Below, in pieces: positions 16,113 to 58,718 of a DNA stretch of 58,718 bases. Position numbers and translations under genes: made by a program. Numbering within the stretch: the first letter of the stretch is position 1; each line of letters opens with the position of its first letter. The stretch covers positions 1 through 58,718 of the forward strand of contig JAFWGF010000009.1 in NCBI GenBank assembly GCA_017512495.1, written 5' to 3'. Under the pieces are notes generated by a model that was not told where the DNA came from, did not search any database, and saw nothing but the letters and a program-made list of their open reading frames with translations. Origin of the DNA: Bacilli bacterium (GTDB lineage Bacteria > Bacillota_I > Bacilli_A > RF39 > UBA660).

Positions 16113-16781
16113 TCCTTTTTTATAGACTTTTACTATTCTTTCTTTTATATCATCAACATGAACTTCTAAATCCATTTTTCTTTTTAATTGATTCTTATTA
16201 GACTTACTTGTAATAGAGTCTAATTTTGACATCGTATTTTTCATTACTTCTTCATCATTAAAAAATTCCGGACACACTTTTGACATATATTTAAGTGACT
16301 TTAAAGTAGCTTCATTATTACAAGCTTCTAATAGTACTGGATTATGTCTTTGTAAAACATGAGCAAGAAAAGAATCAAAACTTAATGCAGCAATAAATTC
16401 ATCTTCTTCATAAAAGCCAGTATCTCTTAAATTTTCTTGTTCTACTAAATAATTATAGCGATAAGCATACTTATCTTCTTCTGAAAGATCTATTATTTCA
16501 TTCATTGCAACTATTATTCGATTAACTATTTTTTTTACATTTGAATCATCTTTCGAAAATCTATATGCAGAAGCTACTGTTAAAATTTTATCAATATATT
16601 CTTCATTATTTAATAGTAAAAAAGCTAATTCATTATCTATTAATTGTTCTACGGAATTTAAAAATATTACATAACCATCATAATCATTATTATAAAGTTC
16701 TACTAATTCTCGACTATTAAAATTAATTAATTGCCCTTTTAAATTAATTAAATCTAAAAATTTATTTCTTTCTTCATTCAT
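16107..16781 (-). CDS. Hypothetical helical protein translationally coupled to lon
   Basis: 224-aa ORF; TAATG overlap at 16781. Confidence 0.8.
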   Translation of the reverse strand: MNEERNKFLDLINLKGQLINFNSRELVELYNNDYDGYVIFLNSVEQLIDNELAFLLLNNEEYIDKILTVASAYRFSKDDSNVKKIVNRIIVAMNEIIDLSEEDKYAYRYNYLVEQENLRDTGFYEEDEFIAALSFDSFLAHVLQRHNPVLLEACNNEATLKSLKYMSKVCPEFFNDEEVMKNTMSKLDSITSKSNKNQLKRKMDLEVHVDDIKERIVKVYKKGE

Positions 16782-19105
16782 TATTTATTACCACCTTGAA
16801 ATATTACTTTGAAAATATCATTATAATTATTAACTGTAATAAAGTTAATATCTTTTTTTACTTCTTTTGGAATCTCATCCAAATCCTTTTCATTCTCTTT
16901 AGGAATAAATACTGTCTTTATTCCAGCACGATGAGCTCCAATTACCTTTTCTTTTAAACCACCTATTCCTAATACTCTTCCACGTAAAGTTATTTCACCC
17001 GTCATAGCAATTGTTTTAGGAACTTTCTTTTTAGTAAATAAACTAATAAGAGTTGTAGTTACTGTTACACCAGCAGATGGCCCATCTTTATTAACTGCTC
17101 CTTCTGGAACATGAATATGTATATCATTATTTTCAAAAACTTCATTCTTTATCTTATATTTATCCATATTAGATTTAATATAGTTTAAAGCAATATGACA
17201 TGATTCTTGCATTACTTCACCTAAGGAACCTGTTAAGACTAAATCTCCTTTTCCTTTAAAAAGAGTTGCTTCTATTGGAAGAATATCTCCTCCAAAAATA
17301 GTATATGCCATTCCATTGACTACACCTATTTCATCTTTACCATAGTTTTCTAAATATAAATATTTCTTTTTACCTAATAATTCCTCTATCATCTTATTAT
17401 CAATATCATAAAAACTAACATCTGTTGTTAATAAAATATTTTTAACAATCTTTCTAAATAAAGTTGCAATTGTTCTTTCTAATTCACGAACTCCAGCCTC
17501 TTTAGTATAATTTCTAATAATAGTTAAAATAGCTTCATCTTCCATTTGAACTTGAAGACTAGTAAGTCCATGTTCTTCTAACTCTTTAGGAATTAAATGG
17601 TTCTTAGCTATATCTAATTTCTCATATTCTGTATAACTAGAAATATTAATTATTTCTAGTCTATCTCTTAATTCATATGGAATTTGTTCCACATAATTAG
17701 CTGTTGCGATAAACATTACTTTACTTAAATCAAATTCTTCTTCAATATAATGATCTGAAAACTTATTATTTTGTTCTGGATCCAATACTTCTAATAAAGC
17801 ACTAGCTGGATCACCTTTAATATCTTTAGTCATCTTATCAATTTCATCTATGATAAAAACTGGATTAGTTGTACCAGCTTTTCTTATCCCTTGAATTATT
17901 CTACCGGGAGAAGATCCTATGTAAGTTCTTCTATGACCTACTATTTCAGCTTCATCATTAATTCCACCTACACTAATTTTAGCAGTTTTTCTACCTAAAC
18001 TCTTCGCAATACTAATTGCAAGAGATGTTTTACCAACACCAGGCGGCCCAACTAAGCAAAGAATTGGACTACGTAAATTATTAGTATTTTGCTTTACAGC
18101 CAAGTATTCCAATATTCTATCTTTTACTTCTTCTAATGCATAGTGAGATGAATCTAAAATATCCTTTACTCTATTTAAATTGTCATTATCTTTAGTAAAC
18201 TTATTCCAGGGTAAGTTAATCATCCATTCAAGATATTCTCTAATCATTCCTAATTCTGGAGAATTACTGTTAAGACTATTATATCTTTCTAATTCTCTTT
18301 CTATTTTTTCTTTTACTTTGTTATTACATTTTAATTTATTAAGCTTCTTAGTAATTCTTTCTACATCAGAATCTTTAGTATTTCCTTCTCCCAATTCTTT
18401 CTGCATTAATTTTATTTTTTCACGTAAAAAGTATTCTTTTTGGGTTTCATTTAATTCTTTTTCTACTTCCGCTTCTATTTGTTGCTCCAACTCAACATAC
18501 TTTAAATCTCTATTCATATCAACAACTAAATATTTAGCTCTTTCAATAGGATCAATTGTTGTGATATATTTTTTCTTTTCCTCATAATTAATAGGTAAAT
18601 AGCTAACTATTAAATCACATAAATCACTCAAAGTATCAACATTATCTACTTGACTCATAATAGCATTACCCATATAAGGTACTTTTCCTATATAATTATC
18701 CAATGTCTTTAATATAATATTAAAATATGTTTGTATATCATCATTTTCTATAATATCTACCGGTTTATAATTAGCTTTAAAATAATTACCTTCTTCAGTA
18801 AAATCATATAATTCTACTCTATCAATTCCTTCAATAACTAATCTTGTTTTTCCATTAGGAACATTCATTTTTAACTTTAAACGACCTAATACACCATATT
18901 TAGGAAATGAAGTAACATTAACAGCTTTTTCTTCAATAGGATTAACAATTAGCATTAAACTGTCACCTATTTTATTAACAATATCTATCATTTGCTTATC
19001 ATAAATATTATCATATTCAATTCTAACTTCATTATTTGGGAAGATTACCATATCATTAATAATTAATACTAATAATTTATCATCCACTGATACTTCACCT
19101 CCCAA
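16781..19105 (-). CDS. lon: Lon ATP-dependent protease (start probably GTG near 19087)
   Basis: GPPGVGKT; IIDEIDK; KDGPSAG; IGGLKEK. Confidence 0.98.
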   Translation of the reverse strand: MGGEVSVDDKLLVLIINDMVIFPNNEVRIEYDNIYDKQMIDIVNKIGDSLMLIVNPIEEKAVNVTSFPKYGVLGRLKLKMNVPNGKTRLVIEGIDRVELYDFTEEGNYFKANYKPVDIIENDDIQTYFNIILKTLDNYIGKVPYMGNAIMSQVDNVDTLSDLCDLIVSYLPINYEEKKKYITTIDPIERAKYLVVDMNRDLKYVELEQQIEAEVEKELNETQKEYFLREKIKLMQKELGEGNTKDSDVERITKKLNKLKCNNKVKEKIERELERYNSLNSNSPELGMIREYLEWMINLPWNKFTKDNDNLNRVKDILDSSHYALEEVKDRILEYLAVKQNTNNLRSPILCLVGPPGVGKTSLAISIAKSLGRKTAKISVGGINDEAEIVGHRRTYIGSSPGRIIQGIRKAGTTNPVFIIDEIDKMTKDIKGDPASALLEVLDPEQNNKFSDHYIEEEFDLSKVMFIATANYVEQIPYELRDRLEIINISSYTEYEKLDIAKNHLIPKELEEHGLTSLQVQMEDEAILTIIRNYTKEAGVRELERTIATLFRKIVKNILLTTDVSFYDIDNKMIEELLGKKKYLYLENYGKDEIGVVNGMAYTIFGGDILPIEATLFKGKGDLVLTGSLGEVMQESCHIALNYIKSNMDKYKIKNEVFENNDIHIHVPEGAVNKDGPSAGVTVTTTLISLFTKKKVPKTIAMTGEITLRGRVLGIGGLKEKVIGAHRAGIKTVFIPKENEKDLDEIPKEVKKDINFITVNNYNDIFKVIFQGGNK

Positions 19106-19167
19106 TAATTAAATACTGCTTACTATTATATCTTAATAAAAATTTTTTTCAACAAAAAAAGGCAAAA

Positions 19168-19192
19168 AAATAAACTCATTTAGAGTTTATTT
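19168..19192 (-). terminator. Terminator of the four-gene radical SAM operon
   Basis: AAATAAACTC-ATTTA-GAGTTTATTT followed by a T run on the minus strand. Confidence 0.7.
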
Positions 19193-19800
19193 TACTTGTT
19201 TAAAAAATCGTGTAAACAATTAAGCATAAATTCAAATTCATACCTAGTAAAGACTGTTTTGTTTGGATCTTCTTCACCCATTGCATGAATAATTGGTAAG
19301 GGACAATTTTTAATCGCATTTCTATAAAAAACATTTTGAATTGCACTTACATATAACTCAATAAGTAAATCATCATACTCTTCAGAATTTCTTTCAATAG
19401 CTTGTCCTTGCCAATAAATAATTCCTGTTTCTTTCCAATTATAATCAGATGCTTCCTTTAATACTAAAGCCTCTTTACCAGAATACTTAAATAACTTCTT
19501 TTGAATTTTTTTATCTGGAAATTTTATTCCTTGAAAGAAACATTCAATTGAATTTAATTTACATCCTTTAAACTTAAATTCATAATTAAATAAATTAGAT
19601 AATAGTTTAGGATATGTTCCTCTTAATCCATAACCGACATTTATCCATTTATCACTTTCTCCTATATAGCCATTCTTATCTTTAACAAGTTCTTTTTTAC
19701 AATATAAGTTACCGTCTTTGTCAGTAGTTATTTTTAATTGTTTAAATTTATAATTCTTTTTAAATTCAATAAATTCTTCTAAGTCCTTTTTATAACTCAT
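19192..19800 (-). CDS. NADAR-superfamily protein (phage T4 gp30.3-like)
   Basis: LLSNLF...SIECFFQGIKF...W...IYWQG...HAMG..D..KTVFT..EF pattern. Confidence 0.7.
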   Translation of the reverse strand: MSYKKDLEEFIEFKKNYKFKQLKITTDKDGNLYCKKELVKDKNGYIGESDKWINVGYGLRGTYPKLLSNLFNYEFKFKGCKLNSIECFFQGIKFPDKKIQKKLFKYSGKEALVLKEASDYNWKETGIIYWQGQAIERNSEEYDDLLIELYVSAIQNVFYRNAIKNCPLPIIHAMGEEDPNKTVFTRYEFEFMLNCLHDFLNK

Positions 19801-19817
19801 AATTATTCTCCTCTATT

Positions 19818-22157
19818 CTATAATAAACTCTTAATTAGTTTTTTACTACTATCTTTTAAACTTTCATCATCATAAATATTAATTCCTGTAAATCTATTAT
19901 AGTAAAACTTTGCATCACTGATTATTGTTTCATAGTCTGAACGTATATTAGAATGATAACCAAATAAGTTTAAATATGCTACATATTCTTCTGGAGATAT
20001 AGCTAATTTATCAACAGCTCTCTCTAAGATTTGATGTCTAGGATAATTAAATGGTGTTAATAACTCTTGTTCACTAGGAACAAATAATTCTTGTCCTCTA
20101 TCTTTTATAGAAAATTCTTGTAAGCGATCAAAAGTATACTGATATGCTCCTGATAATACTACTGAATAATTATTATCTTCAAAATACTTTCTTATTCTTT
20201 TCATAGTTGTACCAGTACCCATATTATCATCTAACAATACTATTTTTTTATTTAAAATAGCTTCTGGATTTACTACTAAATTTCGTAATTCACTGTTATC
20301 ATCAATATTACTAATTCCAAGTTTTTTATATTGACTATATAAAACAATTGAACTATTAGTATCAACCAATGAATTTATAAATGGACCTATATAAATCGAA
20401 CCATATCCTGGAGTTAAAATAGAATAACTATTAATACTCATATCATCTAATAATTTTGTAATTGCTTCTGCAAAATTTAGAATAAATACTTTATTATCAA
20501 GTTCTACTTGTTTTTTCTTATGAAGTATCTCTTGAGTATTAAAGTCATTGATTGTTTCCTTAAATTCTTCAAAGTTAAATGGAATATTCAAATCTTTAAT
20601 AAATGATACAAAATTAGTAATATCATTTACAAATACTTGATAATTATTATTAAGTTCTTCTGGTTGGGATTTCATAATATTACTTACACATGACAAATAA
20701 TATAATTTAGCTGATATATTTAAAATATTTTCTAATAAAACATATTTATCATCTTGACCTAAATTATTACTAGAAAGTAAACAATTAATTAAAGTATCTC
20801 TTCTTTTTAACAATTCTTTTTCTGAATCAAAATAATAATATTGTTGGTAATTCCTAGATAGATACTTATCATCATACTTAGTTATATAATCTAACACTAC
20901 TTTGTCATTTGGTATCATTTCAAATATACCTAAGACATCAGTGCGATTCATATATTCCTTTTTTAATTTAGAATCAAAATCAACAAATCTTTTACTATTA
21001 ATACTAACTATATCTTCATCAATAAAAGAATAATTACTTTTAGTTTTATTAATATAATCAATCTTAATCATTTGATTACCTTCAATATAAAATAATATAT
21101 CACATTCATATTTAACTCTAATATACTTCTTAGAATAATCGATATAATCCATAATGTTTTCTTCATTACTTAAACATAATTTTTCATAATAACTAAATAC
21201 TTTTAAGAACTCTCGATTATGAAGAATATTTCTATCAATATTCATTTTCTTTAAAGTATTTAAATTATCAACATGTGCATATCTATTTACGTGAATATTA
21301 TTATCCATAATAGCCTTTTCCCATTCTTTCAAAGTATACTTCATAACACCATTATTATATGGAAATAAATAAATGTATTCCCCATCTTTAACAATTAATC
21401 CTCTACCTCGATTATTATTACAAAAATTTAATTTACTAGTAAATGAACTATTCTTATCATTAGTATCAACATAAATATCTTCAATATTAGTATTTTCAGA
21501 TAAAATCTTTTTTATCTTTAATGAAGCAAATATTTTTAAATCAACTATTCCATTTAAATATCCTTTATTAGTTAATATTGCATCAATTGCTTCTTCAATA
21601 GAATCACATTTTAAATCATTAATGTTTTTATATTTATCATTTTCTACATACCCAATTATTTTATCTATCTCTAATAGTTTTTCATCAGTAATATAATCAA
21701 TATCAGGAATTTTGTTTCGATAAATATCTGCCATTTTCTTTGAAGCAAAATTAGTAGTTTTATGACCAACTTTATATTCTACTAAATCCATTAATGGATT
21801 TATAATATACTTCTTATTATTCTTAGTAGTTAATACTACATCTTTATGGGCAAATTGATCAGAAAAATAGGAAGTTATCTTACCATTTAAATCAAAATAT
21901 TCTGACAAGATATATTCAAGTATTTCACATAATGATTTACAGGTAACCTGTTGATAATCAAAGCTTTGTTTATTATTATAGATATTTTTTCTCTCTTCTA
22001 AATTTTCTTTAAACAAGAAAAATATTTCATCACGATAATAGTATTTAGACATTTCTATACAAATCATTCTAACTAATGCTAACTCATATTCTTCATCTTT
22101 TAATTCTTTGATTTTTTCTAAATCAATATTTTGAACAATCTTATCTATGATACTCAT
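19818..22157 (-). CDS. Large fusion: N-terminal transglutaminase/papain-like domain and C-terminal type I phosphoribosyltransferase
   Basis: VTCKSLC...AHKDVV...YIINPLMD putative triad; PRPP loop KIVLLDDNMGTGTT near 20205-20245. Confidence 0.65.
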   Translation of the reverse strand: MSIIDKIVQNIDLEKIKELKDEEYELALVRMICIEMSKYYYRDEIFFLFKENLEERKNIYNNKQSFDYQQVTCKSLCEILEYILSEYFDLNGKITSYFSDQFAHKDVVLTTKNNKKYIINPLMDLVEYKVGHKTTNFASKKMADIYRNKIPDIDYITDEKLLEIDKIIGYVENDKYKNINDLKCDSIEEAIDAILTNKGYLNGIVDLKIFASLKIKKILSENTNIEDIYVDTNDKNSSFTSKLNFCNNNRGRGLIVKDGEYIYLFPYNNGVMKYTLKEWEKAIMDNNIHVNRYAHVDNLNTLKKMNIDRNILHNREFLKVFSYYEKLCLSNEENIMDYIDYSKKYIRVKYECDILFYIEGNQMIKIDYINKTKSNYSFIDEDIVSINSKRFVDFDSKLKKEYMNRTDVLGIFEMIPNDKVVLDYITKYDDKYLSRNYQQYYYFDSEKELLKRRDTLINCLLSSNNLGQDDKYVLLENILNISAKLYYLSCVSNIMKSQPEELNNNYQVFVNDITNFVSFIKDLNIPFNFEEFKETINDFNTQEILHKKKQVELDNKVFILNFAEAITKLLDDMSINSYSILTPGYGSIYIGPFINSLVDTNSSIVLYSQYKKLGISNIDDNSELRNLVVNPEAILNKKIVLLDDNMGTGTTMKRIRKYFEDNNYSVVLSGAYQYTFDRLQEFSIKDRGQELFVPSEQELLTPFNYPRHQILERAVDKLAISPEEYVAYLNLFGYHSNIRSDYETIISDAKFYYNRFTGINIYDDESLKDSSKKLIKSLL

Positions 22158-22878
22158 AAAACTTTCTTTTTACCTTTCCAGCAAATTCTAAAACTTGTTC
22201 TTTATCTTCATCAGTAGCAAATTTTTTAGCATAATTAGAAATATTTTTTAAATTTTTACCGCGACCAAAATTCATATTGTATTCTTGAACATTTCTTAGC
22301 ACTTTTTGAAAATTAGTACCATAAATATTTTTAAATACTTCTACGATTTCATCAACATCATCTGTTTTATATAATAAATCAATTAATAATTGATAATCTT
22401 CTTTAGTAATACTCTCTTCTTGTAATGCTTGTAATAATATCACTGTAAATCTTTCATAATATTCTATCCATTTAGTTCTAGATTTCTCATCTGATTCATA
22501 TATTCTTGGATTATAAAATATTTTATCACTAGCAGGTATTAACCATTGGCGCCAATGACTAGAAAAACCATCTTCAAACTTTAATATATTCTCATAACCT
22601 AATTCATGCATTATTGATTCCAAGCTATTAGTTACTTCACATATTTGAAATCTTTCTTCTGGTTTTAATAGTGTTAAGTTAGGAACATGAGGTTTTATAC
22701 CTACTATCATAAATCCTTCTATAGGAACTTCAGGATCAGCTGTTACATTAACAAAACCATCATCATAAAGATAACCACCTACTAGATTAGTTATTTCATG
22801 ATTGGAAATAGCACAACTTTTGCAACCATAGAATTCCATTTCTTGTCCTAAGAAGTTTTTTTCAACCAATTTTTTCAT
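22141..22878 (-). CDS. HIT-fold nucleotide-binding protein with degenerate triad and helical insertion
   Basis: GCKSCAI; DPEVPIEGFMIVGIKPHV; SHWRQWLIP in place of HxHxH. Confidence 0.7.
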   Translation of the reverse strand: MKKLVEKNFLGQEMEFYGCKSCAISNHEITNLVGGYLYDDGFVNVTADPEVPIEGFMIVGIKPHVPNLTLLKPEERFQICEVTNSLESIMHELGYENILKFEDGFSSHWRQWLIPASDKIFYNPRIYESDEKSRTKWIEYYERFTVILLQALQEESITKEDYQLLIDLLYKTDDVDEIVEVFKNIYGTNFQKVLRNVQEYNMNFGRGKNLKNISNYAKKFATDEDKEQVLEFAGKVKRKFYEYHR

Positions 22879-22898
22879 AAATCCCCCTCCTTCTATTA

Positions 22899-24275
22899 TT
22901 AATAAACTAACATAAAATCTATAATATCTACATCATTAAATAATGCTAAATTACTTCTAATTACTTCCAACATTAAATTATCATTTAATGCACAACAATC
23001 ATGACATTTTTGTGGATATTGCGAACGTATTTTAACAGCATTTTTTCCTTGCATCAATTCTTCTAATTCATTTTCTTTTCCTGTTAAAATACCATAATAA
23101 GCATTATCTTTATCTCTAATTTTATCCCAATGAATACAAACTATCAAAGAGTTTCCATATAGAATTGGACTTACTATTGAAGAGAAACATTTAGTTGGTT
23201 TTTTGTTAACTACAAACTCTCTATCAATATATAATTTATCCAATAATTTAGGTGTTTGAATATGTTGAAGACCTAAGTCTCTATAACATTCACTAATTTT
23301 TATTAAATCTTCTTGAGTTTTTTCACTTAATTCAATATCCTTTTTATCTTCTATATGATCTGTTAAAACTTTAACCATTTGGAAGCTATTAACCCCCATT
23401 TTACCTAGCTTTTCAGTTAATTCAATATAATGTCCTTCATTCTTCTTTCTAATACAAGTTCTAACTCCAATCATCAATTCATTTTCCCTTTTATACTTTT
23501 TTCGTAAAGCACATAATTTTTTTAATAGTTTCATCGCATCATCATAAGTAAATTTTTCTTTACCCGGTTGATTACTATAATATTCATAAGCCTCTTTAGA
23601 AATTCCTGGTAAACTTATACGTATATAATAAGCATATTTTGCTAGAGCCTCCATTATATCTTCACTCATTCTACTACCTGTTGATATATAGACAACTCCC
23701 ATATTGCATTCTTCTTTAGCAAACTTAATTATCTCTGCGCGATGTTTATACATGTCTGGATTACCTTCTCCACACATTTCTAGTCTGACTGAATCACAGC
23801 CTCTTGCTTTAGAATATCTAGCTATTTCTTTCAAAATCTTTTTATATTCATCTAATTCTAAAACACATTTATCTAAATTTTTAATTCCCCACATTCTAGT
23901 AGGATCAGCTAAACATTCTCTACAACCAAAATCACAATATGGATAATCCTTAGTACTAATTGATAAAATTGGTAAATTATCAACATTACTTTTCATTCCT
24001 CTTTTAATTGCATTAGCATAATCTAAAATAGTTAATGGATAAAAATGTTGTGGATATAATTCACTTGTTTCAAAGATAATATCTCCAGTTAACTTGTTAA
24101 CCATAATCATAGATTTTGGTTTAAGACATTTATCAATTAATGATAAATTAATACTTTTACTGATAATACTATTATTTAATAATTCAATCTTATTATCATT
24201 GTTTATAGTATACACTTCTCCTTGATTATTAATAGCTAATTTAATCAAAACAATCACCCCTAACTTTTTCGCCAA
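22899..24275 (-). CDS. Radical SAM enzyme with SPASM/twitch-like C-terminal Fe-S domain (likely start TTG at 24248)
   Basis: CDFGCREC (CxxxCxxC); CGEGNP; C-terminal KCFS...IVC...KCHDCC. Confidence 0.85.
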   Translation of the reverse strand: MAKKLGVIVLIKLAINNQGEVYTINNDNKIELLNNSIISKSINLSLIDKCLKPKSMIMVNKLTGDIIFETSELYPQHFYPLTILDYANAIKRGMKSNVDNLPILSISTKDYPYCDFGCRECLADPTRMWGIKNLDKCVLELDEYKKILKEIARYSKARGCDSVRLEMCGEGNPDMYKHRAEIIKFAKEECNMGVVYISTGSRMSEDIMEALAKYAYYIRISLPGISKEAYEYYSNQPGKEKFTYDDAMKLLKKLCALRKKYKRENELMIGVRTCIRKKNEGHYIELTEKLGKMGVNSFQMVKVLTDHIEDKKDIELSEKTQEDLIKISECYRDLGLQHIQTPKLLDKLYIDREFVVNKKPTKCFSSIVSPILYGNSLIVCIHWDKIRDKDNAYYGILTGKENELEELMQGKNAVKIRSQYPQKCHDCCALNDNLMLEVIRSNLALFNDVDIIDFMLVY

Positions 24276-24277
24276 AT

Positions 24278-24306
24278 ATAATATACTATTTACATCTAAA
24301 AGTCAA
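24278..24306 (-). promoter_or_regulatory. Sigma-A-type promoter of the radical SAM operon
   Basis: TTGACT (24301-24306), 17-bp spacer, TATTAT (24278-24283). Confidence 0.6.
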
Positions 24307-24325
24307 TTATTTCAAACAAAACAAA

Positions 24326-24347
24326 AACTCTATATGAATATAGAGTT
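24326..24347 (-). terminator. tig terminator
   Basis: AACTCTATA-TGAA-TATAGAGTT followed by a T-rich tract. Confidence 0.7.
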
Positions 24348-25611
24348 ATTTGTTTAATTCTTTTAAAGTTTCAATAACTTTACGCATTTCTAAATCATAT
24401 TGAACTAGTTCTAATCCACCAAATTGATTTAAGAATTCTTCTTTTTCCATTTGGTATTTTTTAGCTAATTCTTCTGCTTCCTTTTCTGCTTCTTCCATGC
24501 TTACTTTAATCTTTTCAAGATTCATTACTTCTTCTAACATTAAACGATATAAAACATTATTATATGCTTCTTTTTCCATTTGAGCTTTTAAATCTTTTTC
24601 TGTAGAATTAGTAAATTGATAGTAAAGATCTAAAGAAACACCTTGCATTTTCATTTGTTCTTCAAAACGAGTCATTAAACGATCAATTTCTTCTTCAACC
24701 ATTTCTTCAGGAATATCTACTTCTACATTTTTAGATACTGTTTCTAATAAATTATCAACATATTTATTTTCAGCATCCATTTCTTTTTGAGCTTCTAATG
24801 ATTTCTTGATTTCTTCTCTTAGTTTTTCTTCTGAATCTATTCCTTCCATTCCTAAATCTTCAAAGAAATCTTCATCTAATTCTCTTTGTTTTTTCTCTTT
24901 GATTTCATTTACTTTAACTTTAAATACAACCGGAGCTCCTGCTAATTCAGCTGCGCCATAATCCTCAGGGAAAGTTACATTAATATCTTTTTCATCACCA
25001 GTTTTCATACCAATAATTTGTTCTTCAAATCCTGGAATAAATGTATTAGAACCGATTTCTAATGAATAGTTTTCACCTTTTCCTCCATCGAAAGCAACAT
25101 CGTCTTTGAATCCTTCAAAGTCAATAATAGCTACATCACCATTTTGTACTTTTCCATCTTTAGTTACTAATTCAGTATATCTTTCTAATAAGTGACCTAT
25201 TTCATGATCAATTTCATCTTTAGTAACTTTTACTTTTTCAGGTTTAACTCCTAAACCTTTATATTTCTTTACTTTTACTTCTGGCTTAGTAACAATCTTA
25301 AAGATAAATTCTACTCCATCTTCAGTAATATCTTTTATATCAACAGCTGGTTGTACTACAGGTACTAATTTAGAATCATCAATTGCTTTAGTATAAGCTT
25401 CAGGTAATACTGCATTAGCAGCATCAAAATATAAAGATTCTTTTCCAAATTTTTTTTCAAAAACGCTTCTTGGAACTTTACCTTTTCTAAAACCATCTAC
25501 TTTAATTGTTTTTTGTTTTTCTTTAAATACTTTATCAAGTGCTTTTGTCCATGAATCCCCTTCAATTTTTACTGTTACTTCATGGATGCTTTTATTTTCC
25601 TTCTTTGCCAT
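24346..25611 (-). CDS. tig: Trigger factor
   Basis: GFRKGKVP signature; FKBP domain FIPGFEEQ. Confidence 0.98.
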   Translation of the reverse strand: MAKKENKSIHEVTVKIEGDSWTKALDKVFKEKQKTIKVDGFRKGKVPRSVFEKKFGKESLYFDAANAVLPEAYTKAIDDSKLVPVVQPAVDIKDITEDGVEFIFKIVTKPEVKVKKYKGLGVKPEKVKVTKDEIDHEIGHLLERYTELVTKDGKVQNGDVAIIDFEGFKDDVAFDGGKGENYSLEIGSNTFIPGFEEQIIGMKTGDEKDINVTFPEDYGAAELAGAPVVFKVKVNEIKEKKQRELDEDFFEDLGMEGIDSEEKLREEIKKSLEAQKEMDAENKYVDNLLETVSKNVEVDIPEEMVEEEIDRLMTRFEEQMKMQGVSLDLYYQFTNSTEKDLKAQMEKEAYNNVLYRLMLEEVMNLEKIKVSMEEAEKEAEELAKKYQMEKEEFLNQFGGLELVQYDLEMRKVIETLKELNK

Positions 25612-58657: not shown

Positions 58658-58718
58658 TGGCGCCCCAACTAGGACTTGAACCTAGGACCCCTTGATTAAC
58701 AGTCAAGTGCTCTAACCA
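58658..58718 (-). tRNA. tRNA-Asn(GUU), 5' end truncated by the window
   Basis: ...GAGCACTTGACTGTTAATCAAGGGGTCCTAGGTTCAAGTCCTAGTTGGGGCGCCA. Confidence 0.92.

Follow-up and report, generated by a model that had tools for sequence, protein, structure and literature searches.

What do four closely packed genes do between tig and lon in a Bacilli bacterium of the UBA660 lineage, and how did they come to lie there? The locus belongs to a 58,718-nt stretch of DNA (contig JAFWGF010000009.1 of assembly GCA_017512495.1; hereafter the window), the minus strand of which carries tig (24346-25611), then the four genes and then lon (16781-19105). The genes encode a radical S-adenosylmethionine (SAM) enzyme, a HIT-fold protein, a fusion protein that joins a Cys-His-Asp domain to a phosphoribosyltransferase (PRTase) domain, and a NADAR protein. 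This cassette is real, conserved and mobile, and as a set it is undescribed. The data favor a nucleotide-linked small-molecule pathway without deciding its biological role. Tentatively, and with somewhat less than even confidence, we read the cassette as a self-contained, horizontally mobile operon with an intracellular small-molecule or modification pathway centered on nucleotides or ribose phosphates. It would most likely take part in genetic conflict, as a defense against phages or mobile elements in which the PRTase writes and the NADAR erases. The inserted unit and its parts are as follows.

19160..24345, minus strand: whole inserted cassette, 5186 bp, between tig and lon (empty-site junctions in metagenome contigs)
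22899..24245, minus strand: radical SAM enzyme, 448 amino acids (aa) (Pfam Radical_SAM, CxxxCxxC, CGEGNPD)
22141..22878, minus strand: HIT-fold protein, 245 aa, with an inserted helical domain and a degenerate triad (AlphaFold2 and Foldseek)
19818..22157, minus strand: fusion protein, 779 aa, consisting of Cys-His-Asp domain, beta-rich middle, helical bundle and PRTase (AlphaFold2 model, mean predicted local distance difference test [pLDDT] 89.3, predicted template modeling score 0.82)
21468..22157, minus strand: N-terminal Cys-His-Asp domain of the fusion protein, residues 1-230 (papain/transglutaminase-like by pattern only)
19818..20435, minus strand: C-terminal type I PRTase domain of the fusion protein, approximately residues 575-779 (phosphoribosyl pyrophosphate [PRPP] loop LLDDNMGTGTT, Foldseek)
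19192..19800, minus strand: NADAR of phage gp30.3 type, 202 aa (PF08010, 91.2 bits versus a cutoff of 36)

Consistently with a preliminary description of the window, the list of open reading frames (ORFs) places the four genes in the same orientation and separates them by a gap of 20 bp (22879-22898), an overlap of 17 bp (22141-22157) and a gap of 17 bp (19801-19817). The translations also contain the three motifs named there, i.e., CDFGCREC (CxxxCxxC), LLDDNMGTGTT and the match to gp30.3. No membrane-like segment was predicted in any of the four proteins, and there is no transporter gene within the unit.

Empty sites defined the ends of the insertion. Contigs from two gut metagenome runs of different studies (X9 and X12) join position 19159 to position 24346 across 34 other letters, which match, in reverse complement, the terminator stretch of the tig-lon spacer in G018, the closest genome of the same genus (tig 92% and lon 95% identical). 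The 88-bp spacer of G018 aligns to both flanks of the cassette. Run X9 holds, in addition to the junction, a 5301-nt contig that covers 19109-24406 in the filled form; the two forms therefore exist side by side, and the insert extends over 19160-24345. The empty tig-lon site that the preliminary description proposed to look for was thus found both in G018 and in the X9 and X12 contigs. tig was detected in 29 of the 30 other genomes of the genus, with lon lying approximately 90 to 170 nt beyond it in 21 of these 29. The remaining eight have a single unrelated gene (four genomes), a rearrangement (one), at least 1.5 kb of other DNA (one) or a contig end (two) at this place. The tig-clpX-lon order considered normal for Bacilli in the preliminary description does not apply here: in this genus lon comes directly after tig, and the best clpX match in the genome of the window (G000, 86% complete) stays below the curated cutoff (159 versus 370 bits).

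The single unrelated genes in the tig-lon interval of four other species (L053 3307-4917, L054 3081-3911, L055 3180-3959 and L056 3147-3917) encode proteins of 256 to 536 aa, three of them with a hydrophobic, membrane-like N-terminus. The spacer therefore acts as a small accessory-gene hotspot.

In a search of 41 genomes, the fusion protein was detected only in G000, with G009 containing a partial paralogue of its N-terminal domain; of the 24 same-genus genomes, the 23 other than G000 yielded no copy. Similarly, the radical SAM profile matched one of 401 genomes of the class, G000 itself, and none of the 400 others. Together with the empty site, these absences bear out the initial idea of an accessory cassette. 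Twenty DNA runs from 13 animal-gut studies contain at least half of the sampled words of the cassette.

Scanning of genome contigs with the fusion-protein alignment revealed 19 loci in gut and rumen metagenome-assembled genomes, which are labeled as Tenericutes, Bacilli, Clostridia and, in one case, Alphaproteobacteria. tblastn with six window proteins identified all four cassette genes in 14 of these 19 loci and tig or lon in none; among the other five, three represent the variant form described below and two are cut by contig ends inside a gene. A metagenome scan seeded with the radical SAM enzyme yielded 54 loci, 19 of which fall in the clades of the window and of Clostridia. Of these 19 loci, 18 also contain the HIT-fold gene and 14 contain the Cys-His-Asp gene, every miss being at a contig end. 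Recurrence of the gene set at many unrelated loci is more than chance, and the four families first noticed side by side in the window do occur together elsewhere as a unit.

Two arrangements of the complete unit can be told apart. Bacilli-type copies keep the gene order of the window, often with an SGNH hydrolase gene in front, and are found at various sites in the chromosome, where they are bordered by unrelated housekeeping genes and not by mobile genes. Clostridia-type copies have the order alpha/beta hydrolase, WG-repeat plus HIT protein, fusion protein, NADAR and a short second HIT protein, with the radical SAM gene convergent. As esterase, the Clostridia copies have an alpha/beta hydrolase and the Bacilli copies an SGNH hydrolase. 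Next to the Clostridia-type copies, which are cargo of mobilizable elements, lie RepA_N, TnpV, NikA/MobC, relaxase, Mob_Pre, rve integrase and DUF6076 genes. On two such cassette-bearing elements, an adenosine-deaminase-like gene adjoins the DUF6076 gene (L093 13570-14661; L106 from 15973). In one further Clostridia-type copy (L110 8064-13874) every gene is split into short ORFs, which reflects either decay of the copy or poor assembly.

The PRTase domain and the NADAR were found together in 25 of 25 loci. Five variant loci (L014, L015, L020, L091 and L092) encode a Cys-His-Asp protein of 439 to 467 aa that has no PRTase domain and is accompanied by no NADAR; instead, they carry a GT2 glycosyltransferase (5/5) and a metallophosphoesterase (4/5). 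It follows from this co-variation that PRTase and NADAR make up one module, exchangeable for another transferase/hydrolase pair. A sister radical SAM clade, at approximately 50% identity, has the HIT-fold, fusion-protein or NADAR genes in none of its 23 loci. Its cluster, which was found in gut Bacilli/Mollicutes-like contigs (L059 4076-11016, with the layout shared by L060-L081), encodes a radical SAM paralogue, a guanylate-kinase-like protein, a YfcE-type phosphodiesterase, a 165-aa protein of unknown kind, a pair of DUF402 proteins (FomD is matched weakly by one of them, E 2e-4), a 449-aa radical SAM protein, a small second radical SAM protein and either a GT2 glycosyltransferase or a methyltransferase. 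This sister cluster also appears to be undescribed. Considered jointly, the kinase, the hydrolases of nucleoside monophosphate (NMP) conjugates, the phosphoesterases, the HIT-fold proteins, the PRTase and the NADAR would point to a substrate linked to a nucleotide or ribose phosphate. Further radical SAM lineages (L090 526-2422, L104, L107 and L108) are 33 to 53% identical to the window enzyme; one of them neighbors an unclustered 212-aa gene, and the others a small radical SAM protein plus a paralogue.

The longest ORF of the radical SAM gene is 22899-24275. A TTG codon at 24245 is preceded by the ribosome-binding site AGGGGTGA, and homologues begin at matching MIK/MRI/MKI residues. On these grounds, TTG 24245 is the most likely start (448 aa), and a start at 24275 is unlikely. 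The match to Pfam PF04055 (Radical_SAM) scores 29.5 bits, exactly the cutoff, which places the protein in the superfamily. An alignment of 14 of 17 ORFs (A3; three fragments were dropped) revealed that C104, C108 and C111 of the CxxxCxxC motif are invariant in 14/14 sequences, as is the CGEGNPD motif. Four extra cysteines, C353, C370, C414 and C417, are invariant too and probably hold an auxiliary cluster. The best NCBIfam family is prokaryotic viperin (viperin_w_prok, NF038283) in 14/14 members, but the window enzyme reaches 36.6 bits versus a cutoff of 180, and the best E value among the 14 members is 5e-10; the match to the PADLOC pVip model is weak as well (1.8e-12). The suggested analogy to viperins therefore stands as regards the closest curated family and falls short of membership. 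Weaker matches involved NirJ, mycofactocin, SPASM and MoaA models, and no B12 domain match was obtained. Comparison of the radical SAM profile with sequences of solved structures gave no usable match, and an Atlas search with the enzyme returned only generic radical SAM/SPASM clusters.

The second protein of the cassette had no match in Pfam, NCBIfam, PADLOC or PHROGs, and nothing usable among sequences of solved structures. Its AlphaFold2 model (pLDDT 83) retrieved 35 PDB matches at E ≤ 1e-3 with Foldseek, and all those listed are HIT-family or HIT-like proteins save one spliceosome chain. The canonical HIT triad is H-x-H-x-H-x-x, in which the middle histidine is the nucleophile. At this position the window protein reads H-W-R-Q-W-L-I-P, and the nucleophilic histidine is therefore absent from this copy. 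Thus, the HIT fold assigned from the sequence is confirmed by modeling, whereas the histidine triad is degenerate. The short HIT paralogue of Clostridia reads N-L-H-I-N-F-I-P (N-x-H-x-N) and keeps the nucleophilic histidine; its match to Pfam HIT is weak (E 0.033). The HIT-fold family comprises 159 clusters at E ≤ 0.001, and all of the 120 listed correspond to the three forms seen in the cassette.

The fusion protein is confined to 17 clusters among 5.8 billion, and 16 of its 17 matches were aligned (A1; the 686-aa partial P0006 was dropped). A whole-chain Foldseek search matched the PRTase part only, and the sequence profile of the fusion protein yielded no usable match among solved structures. 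This domain retrieved OPRT, HGXPRT and APRT from the PDB at probability 1.0 (E about 5e-3), and PRPP synthetase was matched as well. Residues D643, D644, N645 and T651 of the PRPP loop are invariant, so that both fold and loop are those of a type I PRTase. The Pfam model PF00156 (Pribosyltran) remains below its cutoff for the window protein (18 versus 26.3 bits) and matched 11 of 16 members at E ≤ 1, with a best value of 2e-5. A Foldseek search of the fusion protein against viral models gave nothing at E ≤ 1e-3 and only PRTase look-alikes. The predicted complex of the fusion protein with the NADAR scored 0.00, which is not evidence either way.

The N-terminal domain belongs to a family with 406 representatives at E ≤ 1e-3, which was aligned using 31 of 150 listed matches picked by length (approximately 280 to 340 aa; A7). 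C73 and D124 are invariant in 36/36 diverse relatives and H104 is present in 24/36; in the AlphaFold2 model, C73 lies at the N-terminus of helix 73-88. This arrangement fits a papain/transglutaminase-like triad, judging from the residue pattern. No Pfam match was found in 16 members or 10 distant relatives of the domain, and no PDB sequence match. The earlier transglutaminase label thus agrees with the Cys/His/Asp pattern and with a weak Atlas lead to transglutaminase-like clusters (0.77), but finds no counterpart in Pfam or among PDB sequences. In one relative (P0281), an alpha/beta hydrolase is fused to the Cys-His-Asp domain. The paralogue in G009, of the same genus, is a stand-alone Cys-His-Asp protein of 436 aa (L002 1414-2724) with 29% identity over residues 29-178.

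The invariant features of the NADAR are E86, an FFQG motif and H172 in an IIH strand, the latter being present in 11/11 sequences. A histidine in the last strand is described as defining phage-type NADARs (PMC11125620). With this residue and a PF08010 score above the cutoff, the protein is clearly of the gp30.3 type. It is approximately 32% identical to proteins of 765 phage records and matched one plasmid in the plasmid records.

How might the four proteins work together? The radical SAM enzyme would perform radical chemistry on a nucleotide-linked substrate, and the HIT-fold protein may bind or process the phosphate link of that nucleotide. With PRPP or a similar compound as donor, the PRTase domain would attach a phosphoribosyl group by an N-glycosidic bond to a base, an amine or a macromolecule, while the fused Cys-His-Asp domain would supply acyl/amide chemistry or target binding. 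The NADAR hydrolase would then erase or trim the N-ribosyl bond, either for self-protection or as proofreading, as in DarT1-NADAR and DS-32. The latter is a two-gene system of a PRTase and a NADAR, which according to the DefensePredictor preprint protected Escherichia coli from phages by a mode of action left unsolved (10.1101/2025.01.08.631726); the Science version of this work mentions NADAR only in passing (PMC13092281). A role of the cassette in conflict is supported by the protection that DS-32 confers, the phage type of the NADAR, the apparent solubility of the proteins and the lack of a transporter in the unit.

Several observations weigh against the conflict reading. Steps of the pathway are swapped between non-homologous enzymes (PRTase/GT2, NADAR/phosphoesterase, HIT/DUF402 and alpha-beta/SGNH hydrolase), and the cassette therefore resembles a metabolic pathway as much as an immune system. 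Bacilli-type loci neighbor housekeeping genes, not defense islands. PADLOC 2023 returned no system match, only the weak pVip hit and a weak ShosT hit. The similarity to viperin lies far under the curated cutoff, and the cassette enzyme has extra conserved cysteines; to our knowledge, viperins do not. Any sequence homology of the PRTase and NADAR to DS-32A/B would be conjectural, the likeness to DS-32 lying in the pairing of genes as described. No RNA run was listed with the cassette stretch, which provides no expression evidence either way. Finally, the two scans share organisms (e.g., L087 with L004 and L099 with L006), and their counts therefore overstate independence. A more specific version of the conflict reading is possible if doubtful: a new mobile immune pathway, in which an unknown radical SAM enzyme and a HIT partner devoid of its catalytic histidines would make a novel ribose- or nucleotide-derived molecule. 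The PRTase writer, fused to the new Cys-His-Asp domain, would place this molecule on a target in the virus or the cell, and the phage-type NADAR eraser would take it off.

The best-surviving rival, which we consider unlikely, is non-immune biosynthesis of a nucleotide-derived metabolite, such as an antimetabolite, a compound resembling a cofactor or a modified sugar-nucleotide destined for a surface glycan. Here, the nucleotide would be a handle for the radical SAM chemistry that the HIT-fold protein later removes. The exchange of steps for non-homologous enzymes between variants speaks for this explanation, as do the GT2 enzyme in both the variant form and the sister cluster, the methyltransferase, kinase-like protein and phosphoesterases of the latter, and the weak FomD match of one of its DUF402 proteins. 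It fits poorly with a unit of soluble-looking proteins that contains no transporter, regulator or obvious resistance gene, and that is very small, sporadic and mobile, being placed on mobilizable elements in Clostridia. The phage-type NADAR and the match of the PRTase and NADAR pairing to a validated defense pair argue against it as well.

Alternatively, the cassette could be counter-defense or repair cargo of mobile elements, in which a PRPP-synthetase/PRTase-fold enzyme and the NADAR would rebuild or detoxify NAD/ADP-ribose-type molecules and allow an element that enters a host to withstand its NAD-depleting or ADP-ribosylating immunity; we regard this as improbable. In its favor, gp30.3-type NADARs are phage proteins, as the 765 phage records indicate, and phage NADARs are discussed as counter-measures and as neighbors of NAD salvage genes (PMC9503650, PMC11125620). 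The location of Clostridial copies on mobilizable elements and the presence of PRPP synthetase among the Foldseek matches are also in line with it. However, neither the radical SAM enzyme nor the fusion protein had a match in 50,697 phage records, and the fusion protein had none in 72,556 plasmid records; IMG/VR pattern scans, which can miss distant relatives, revealed no relative of either protein. Moreover, Bacilli-type copies are chromosomal without adjoining mobile genes, and replacement of PRTase and NADAR by GT2 and phosphoesterase in the variant form does not suit NAD repair.

Accretion of two unrelated modules, namely a DS-32-like PRTase and NADAR toxin-antitoxin pair and a separate radical SAM and HIT pair, is very improbable and already largely refuted by the co-occurrence data. 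PRTase and NADAR do work as a two-gene system in E. coli, and the radical SAM gene of the Clostridia copies runs opposite to the other genes. Nevertheless, every long-enough locus of the clades concerned joins the radical SAM, HIT-fold and Cys-His-Asp genes despite changes in order, and all 120 clusters listed for the HIT-fold family, out of 159, are of cassette type. Furthermore, the fusion partner of the PRTase remains linked to the radical SAM and HIT genes at loci that lack PRTase and NADAR. Salvage of by-products, whereby the NADAR would cleave the 5'-deoxyadenosine of the radical SAM enzyme and the PRTase would recover adenine, might explain the PRTase-NADAR co-variation and a need of the small-genome host, but has a next to negligible probability and was rejected in view of the variant form, in which the radical SAM enzyme is retained with neither PRTase nor NADAR; fusion of the PRTase to a large conserved multi-domain protein tells against it too. 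A maturation cluster for a ribosomally synthesized and post-translationally modified peptide was likewise rejected, since the spacings of 20, -17 and 17 bp and a leader of approximately 70 bp leave no room for a precursor gene, none of which lies inside the unit.

Putative transcription signals border the cassette on both sides.

24315..24347, minus strand: tig terminator-like AT-rich hairpin and U-run, upstream of the cassette (folding energy -9.3 kcal/mol, z -2.9 versus shuffles)
24278..24306, minus strand: promoter-like TTGACT-17-TATTAT before the first gene (10/12 consensus matches)
19155..19193, minus strand: terminator-like hairpin and U-run after the NADAR gene (-10 kcal/mol, z -5.2; 0/200 shuffles equal)
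19125..19152, minus strand: lon promoter-like TTGAAA-16-TATAAT in native DNA just beyond the insert (11/12 matches)

Both AT-rich hairpins with U-runs fold better than shuffles, in agreement with the terminators first proposed for tig and for the cassette itself. A terminator scan found none, because its rule requires G+C-rich stems. The promoter ascribed to the cassette is indeed present as a sequence at 24306-24278, but promoter-like sites are not in excess over shuffles in this DNA of 24% G+C (56 observed versus 50.6 ± 7.2), so that position is its sole support. The lon promoter-like site is kept at the empty site of G018. An Rfam search over the whole window identified tRNAs only, with no riboswitch ahead of the cassette. 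Five tRNA genes cluster at 520-944 of the window, and a sixth (58661-58718) is cut by the window end.

The cassette would extend the known radical SAM chemistry on nucleotides and contribute at least two uncharacterized protein families, the HIT-fold family and the Cys-His-Asp family, and it links these families to a PRTase and NADAR pairing whose anti-phage mechanism is unsolved. If the immune-pathway reading is true, the cassette would also reveal how the DS-32 defense works. With a size of 5.2 kb, a self-contained organization and presence or absence among near-identical gut strains, the unit is directly testable, and the variant forms, in which GT2 and phosphoesterase replace PRTase and NADAR, provide natural experiments for assigning the steps.

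Full-text literature and library searches retrieved no description of the four-gene combination, and papers naming both NADAR and radical SAM were off-topic by title or coincidences of an author's surname. The initial statement that no named pathway is known with this combination accordingly holds for the set, but not for the PRTase and NADAR pair, which has a published counterpart in DS-32. Individual components resemble several known systems. In the HIT superfamily (Hint, Fhit, Ap4A phosphorylase and the GalT branch), the likeness lies in the fold, whereas the cassette proteins differ by the H-x-R-x-W (long form) or N-x-H-x-N (short form) pattern, an inserted helical or N-terminal WG-repeat domain, and the lack of a library model. 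When fosfomycin is made, the substrate of a radical SAM methylase is linked to cytidine monophosphate (CMP), which FomD removes. As in this Fom3/FomD arrangement, a radical SAM enzyme is here found beside small hydrolases for NMP-linked molecules, and two DUF402 genes of the sister cluster occupy the place of the two HIT-fold genes in the Clostridia-type cassette. Unlike in fosfomycin synthesis, there are no phosphonate genes, no B12 domain match and only the weak similarity to FomD (E 2e-4).

Prokaryotic viperins (pVip, NF038283, PADLOC PDLC02903) are the best-scoring curated family for the radical SAM enzyme. A kinase gene adjoins the enzyme of the sister clade, and a kinase neighbor is reported to be common to many viperins (10.1101/2023.09.13.557418). 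By analogy, the viperin match and the kinase neighbor may fit the logic of making a modified nucleotide. In contrast to viperins, the cassette enzyme has four extra invariant cysteines and an N-terminal extension, and its NirJ, mycofactocin, SPASM and MoaA hits suggest another branch. DarT1-NADAR, YarT-YbiA and T4 gp30.3 share with the cassette a NADAR hydrolase that is paired with a writer of ribosyl N-glycosides, predicted in our case, and the last-strand histidine here is of the phage type (PMC11125620). However, the putative writer of the cassette has a PRTase fold, not an ADP-ribosyltransferase fold, and its donor would therefore be PRPP-like rather than NAD.

The closest precedent in gene content is DS-32, because of which the cassette set is not wholly without precedent. 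DS-32 has two genes, whereas the cassette has four to six, and its PRTase forms the C-terminal part of a 779-aa protein that also contains a Cys-His-Asp domain. In the cassette, the pair is invariably accompanied by a radical SAM enzyme and a HIT-fold protein, and the NADAR is of the gp30.3 type. What both have in common is a PRTase gene directly beside a NADAR gene, at a distance of 17 bp in the window and as a pairing present in 25/25 loci versus 0/5 of the variant form.

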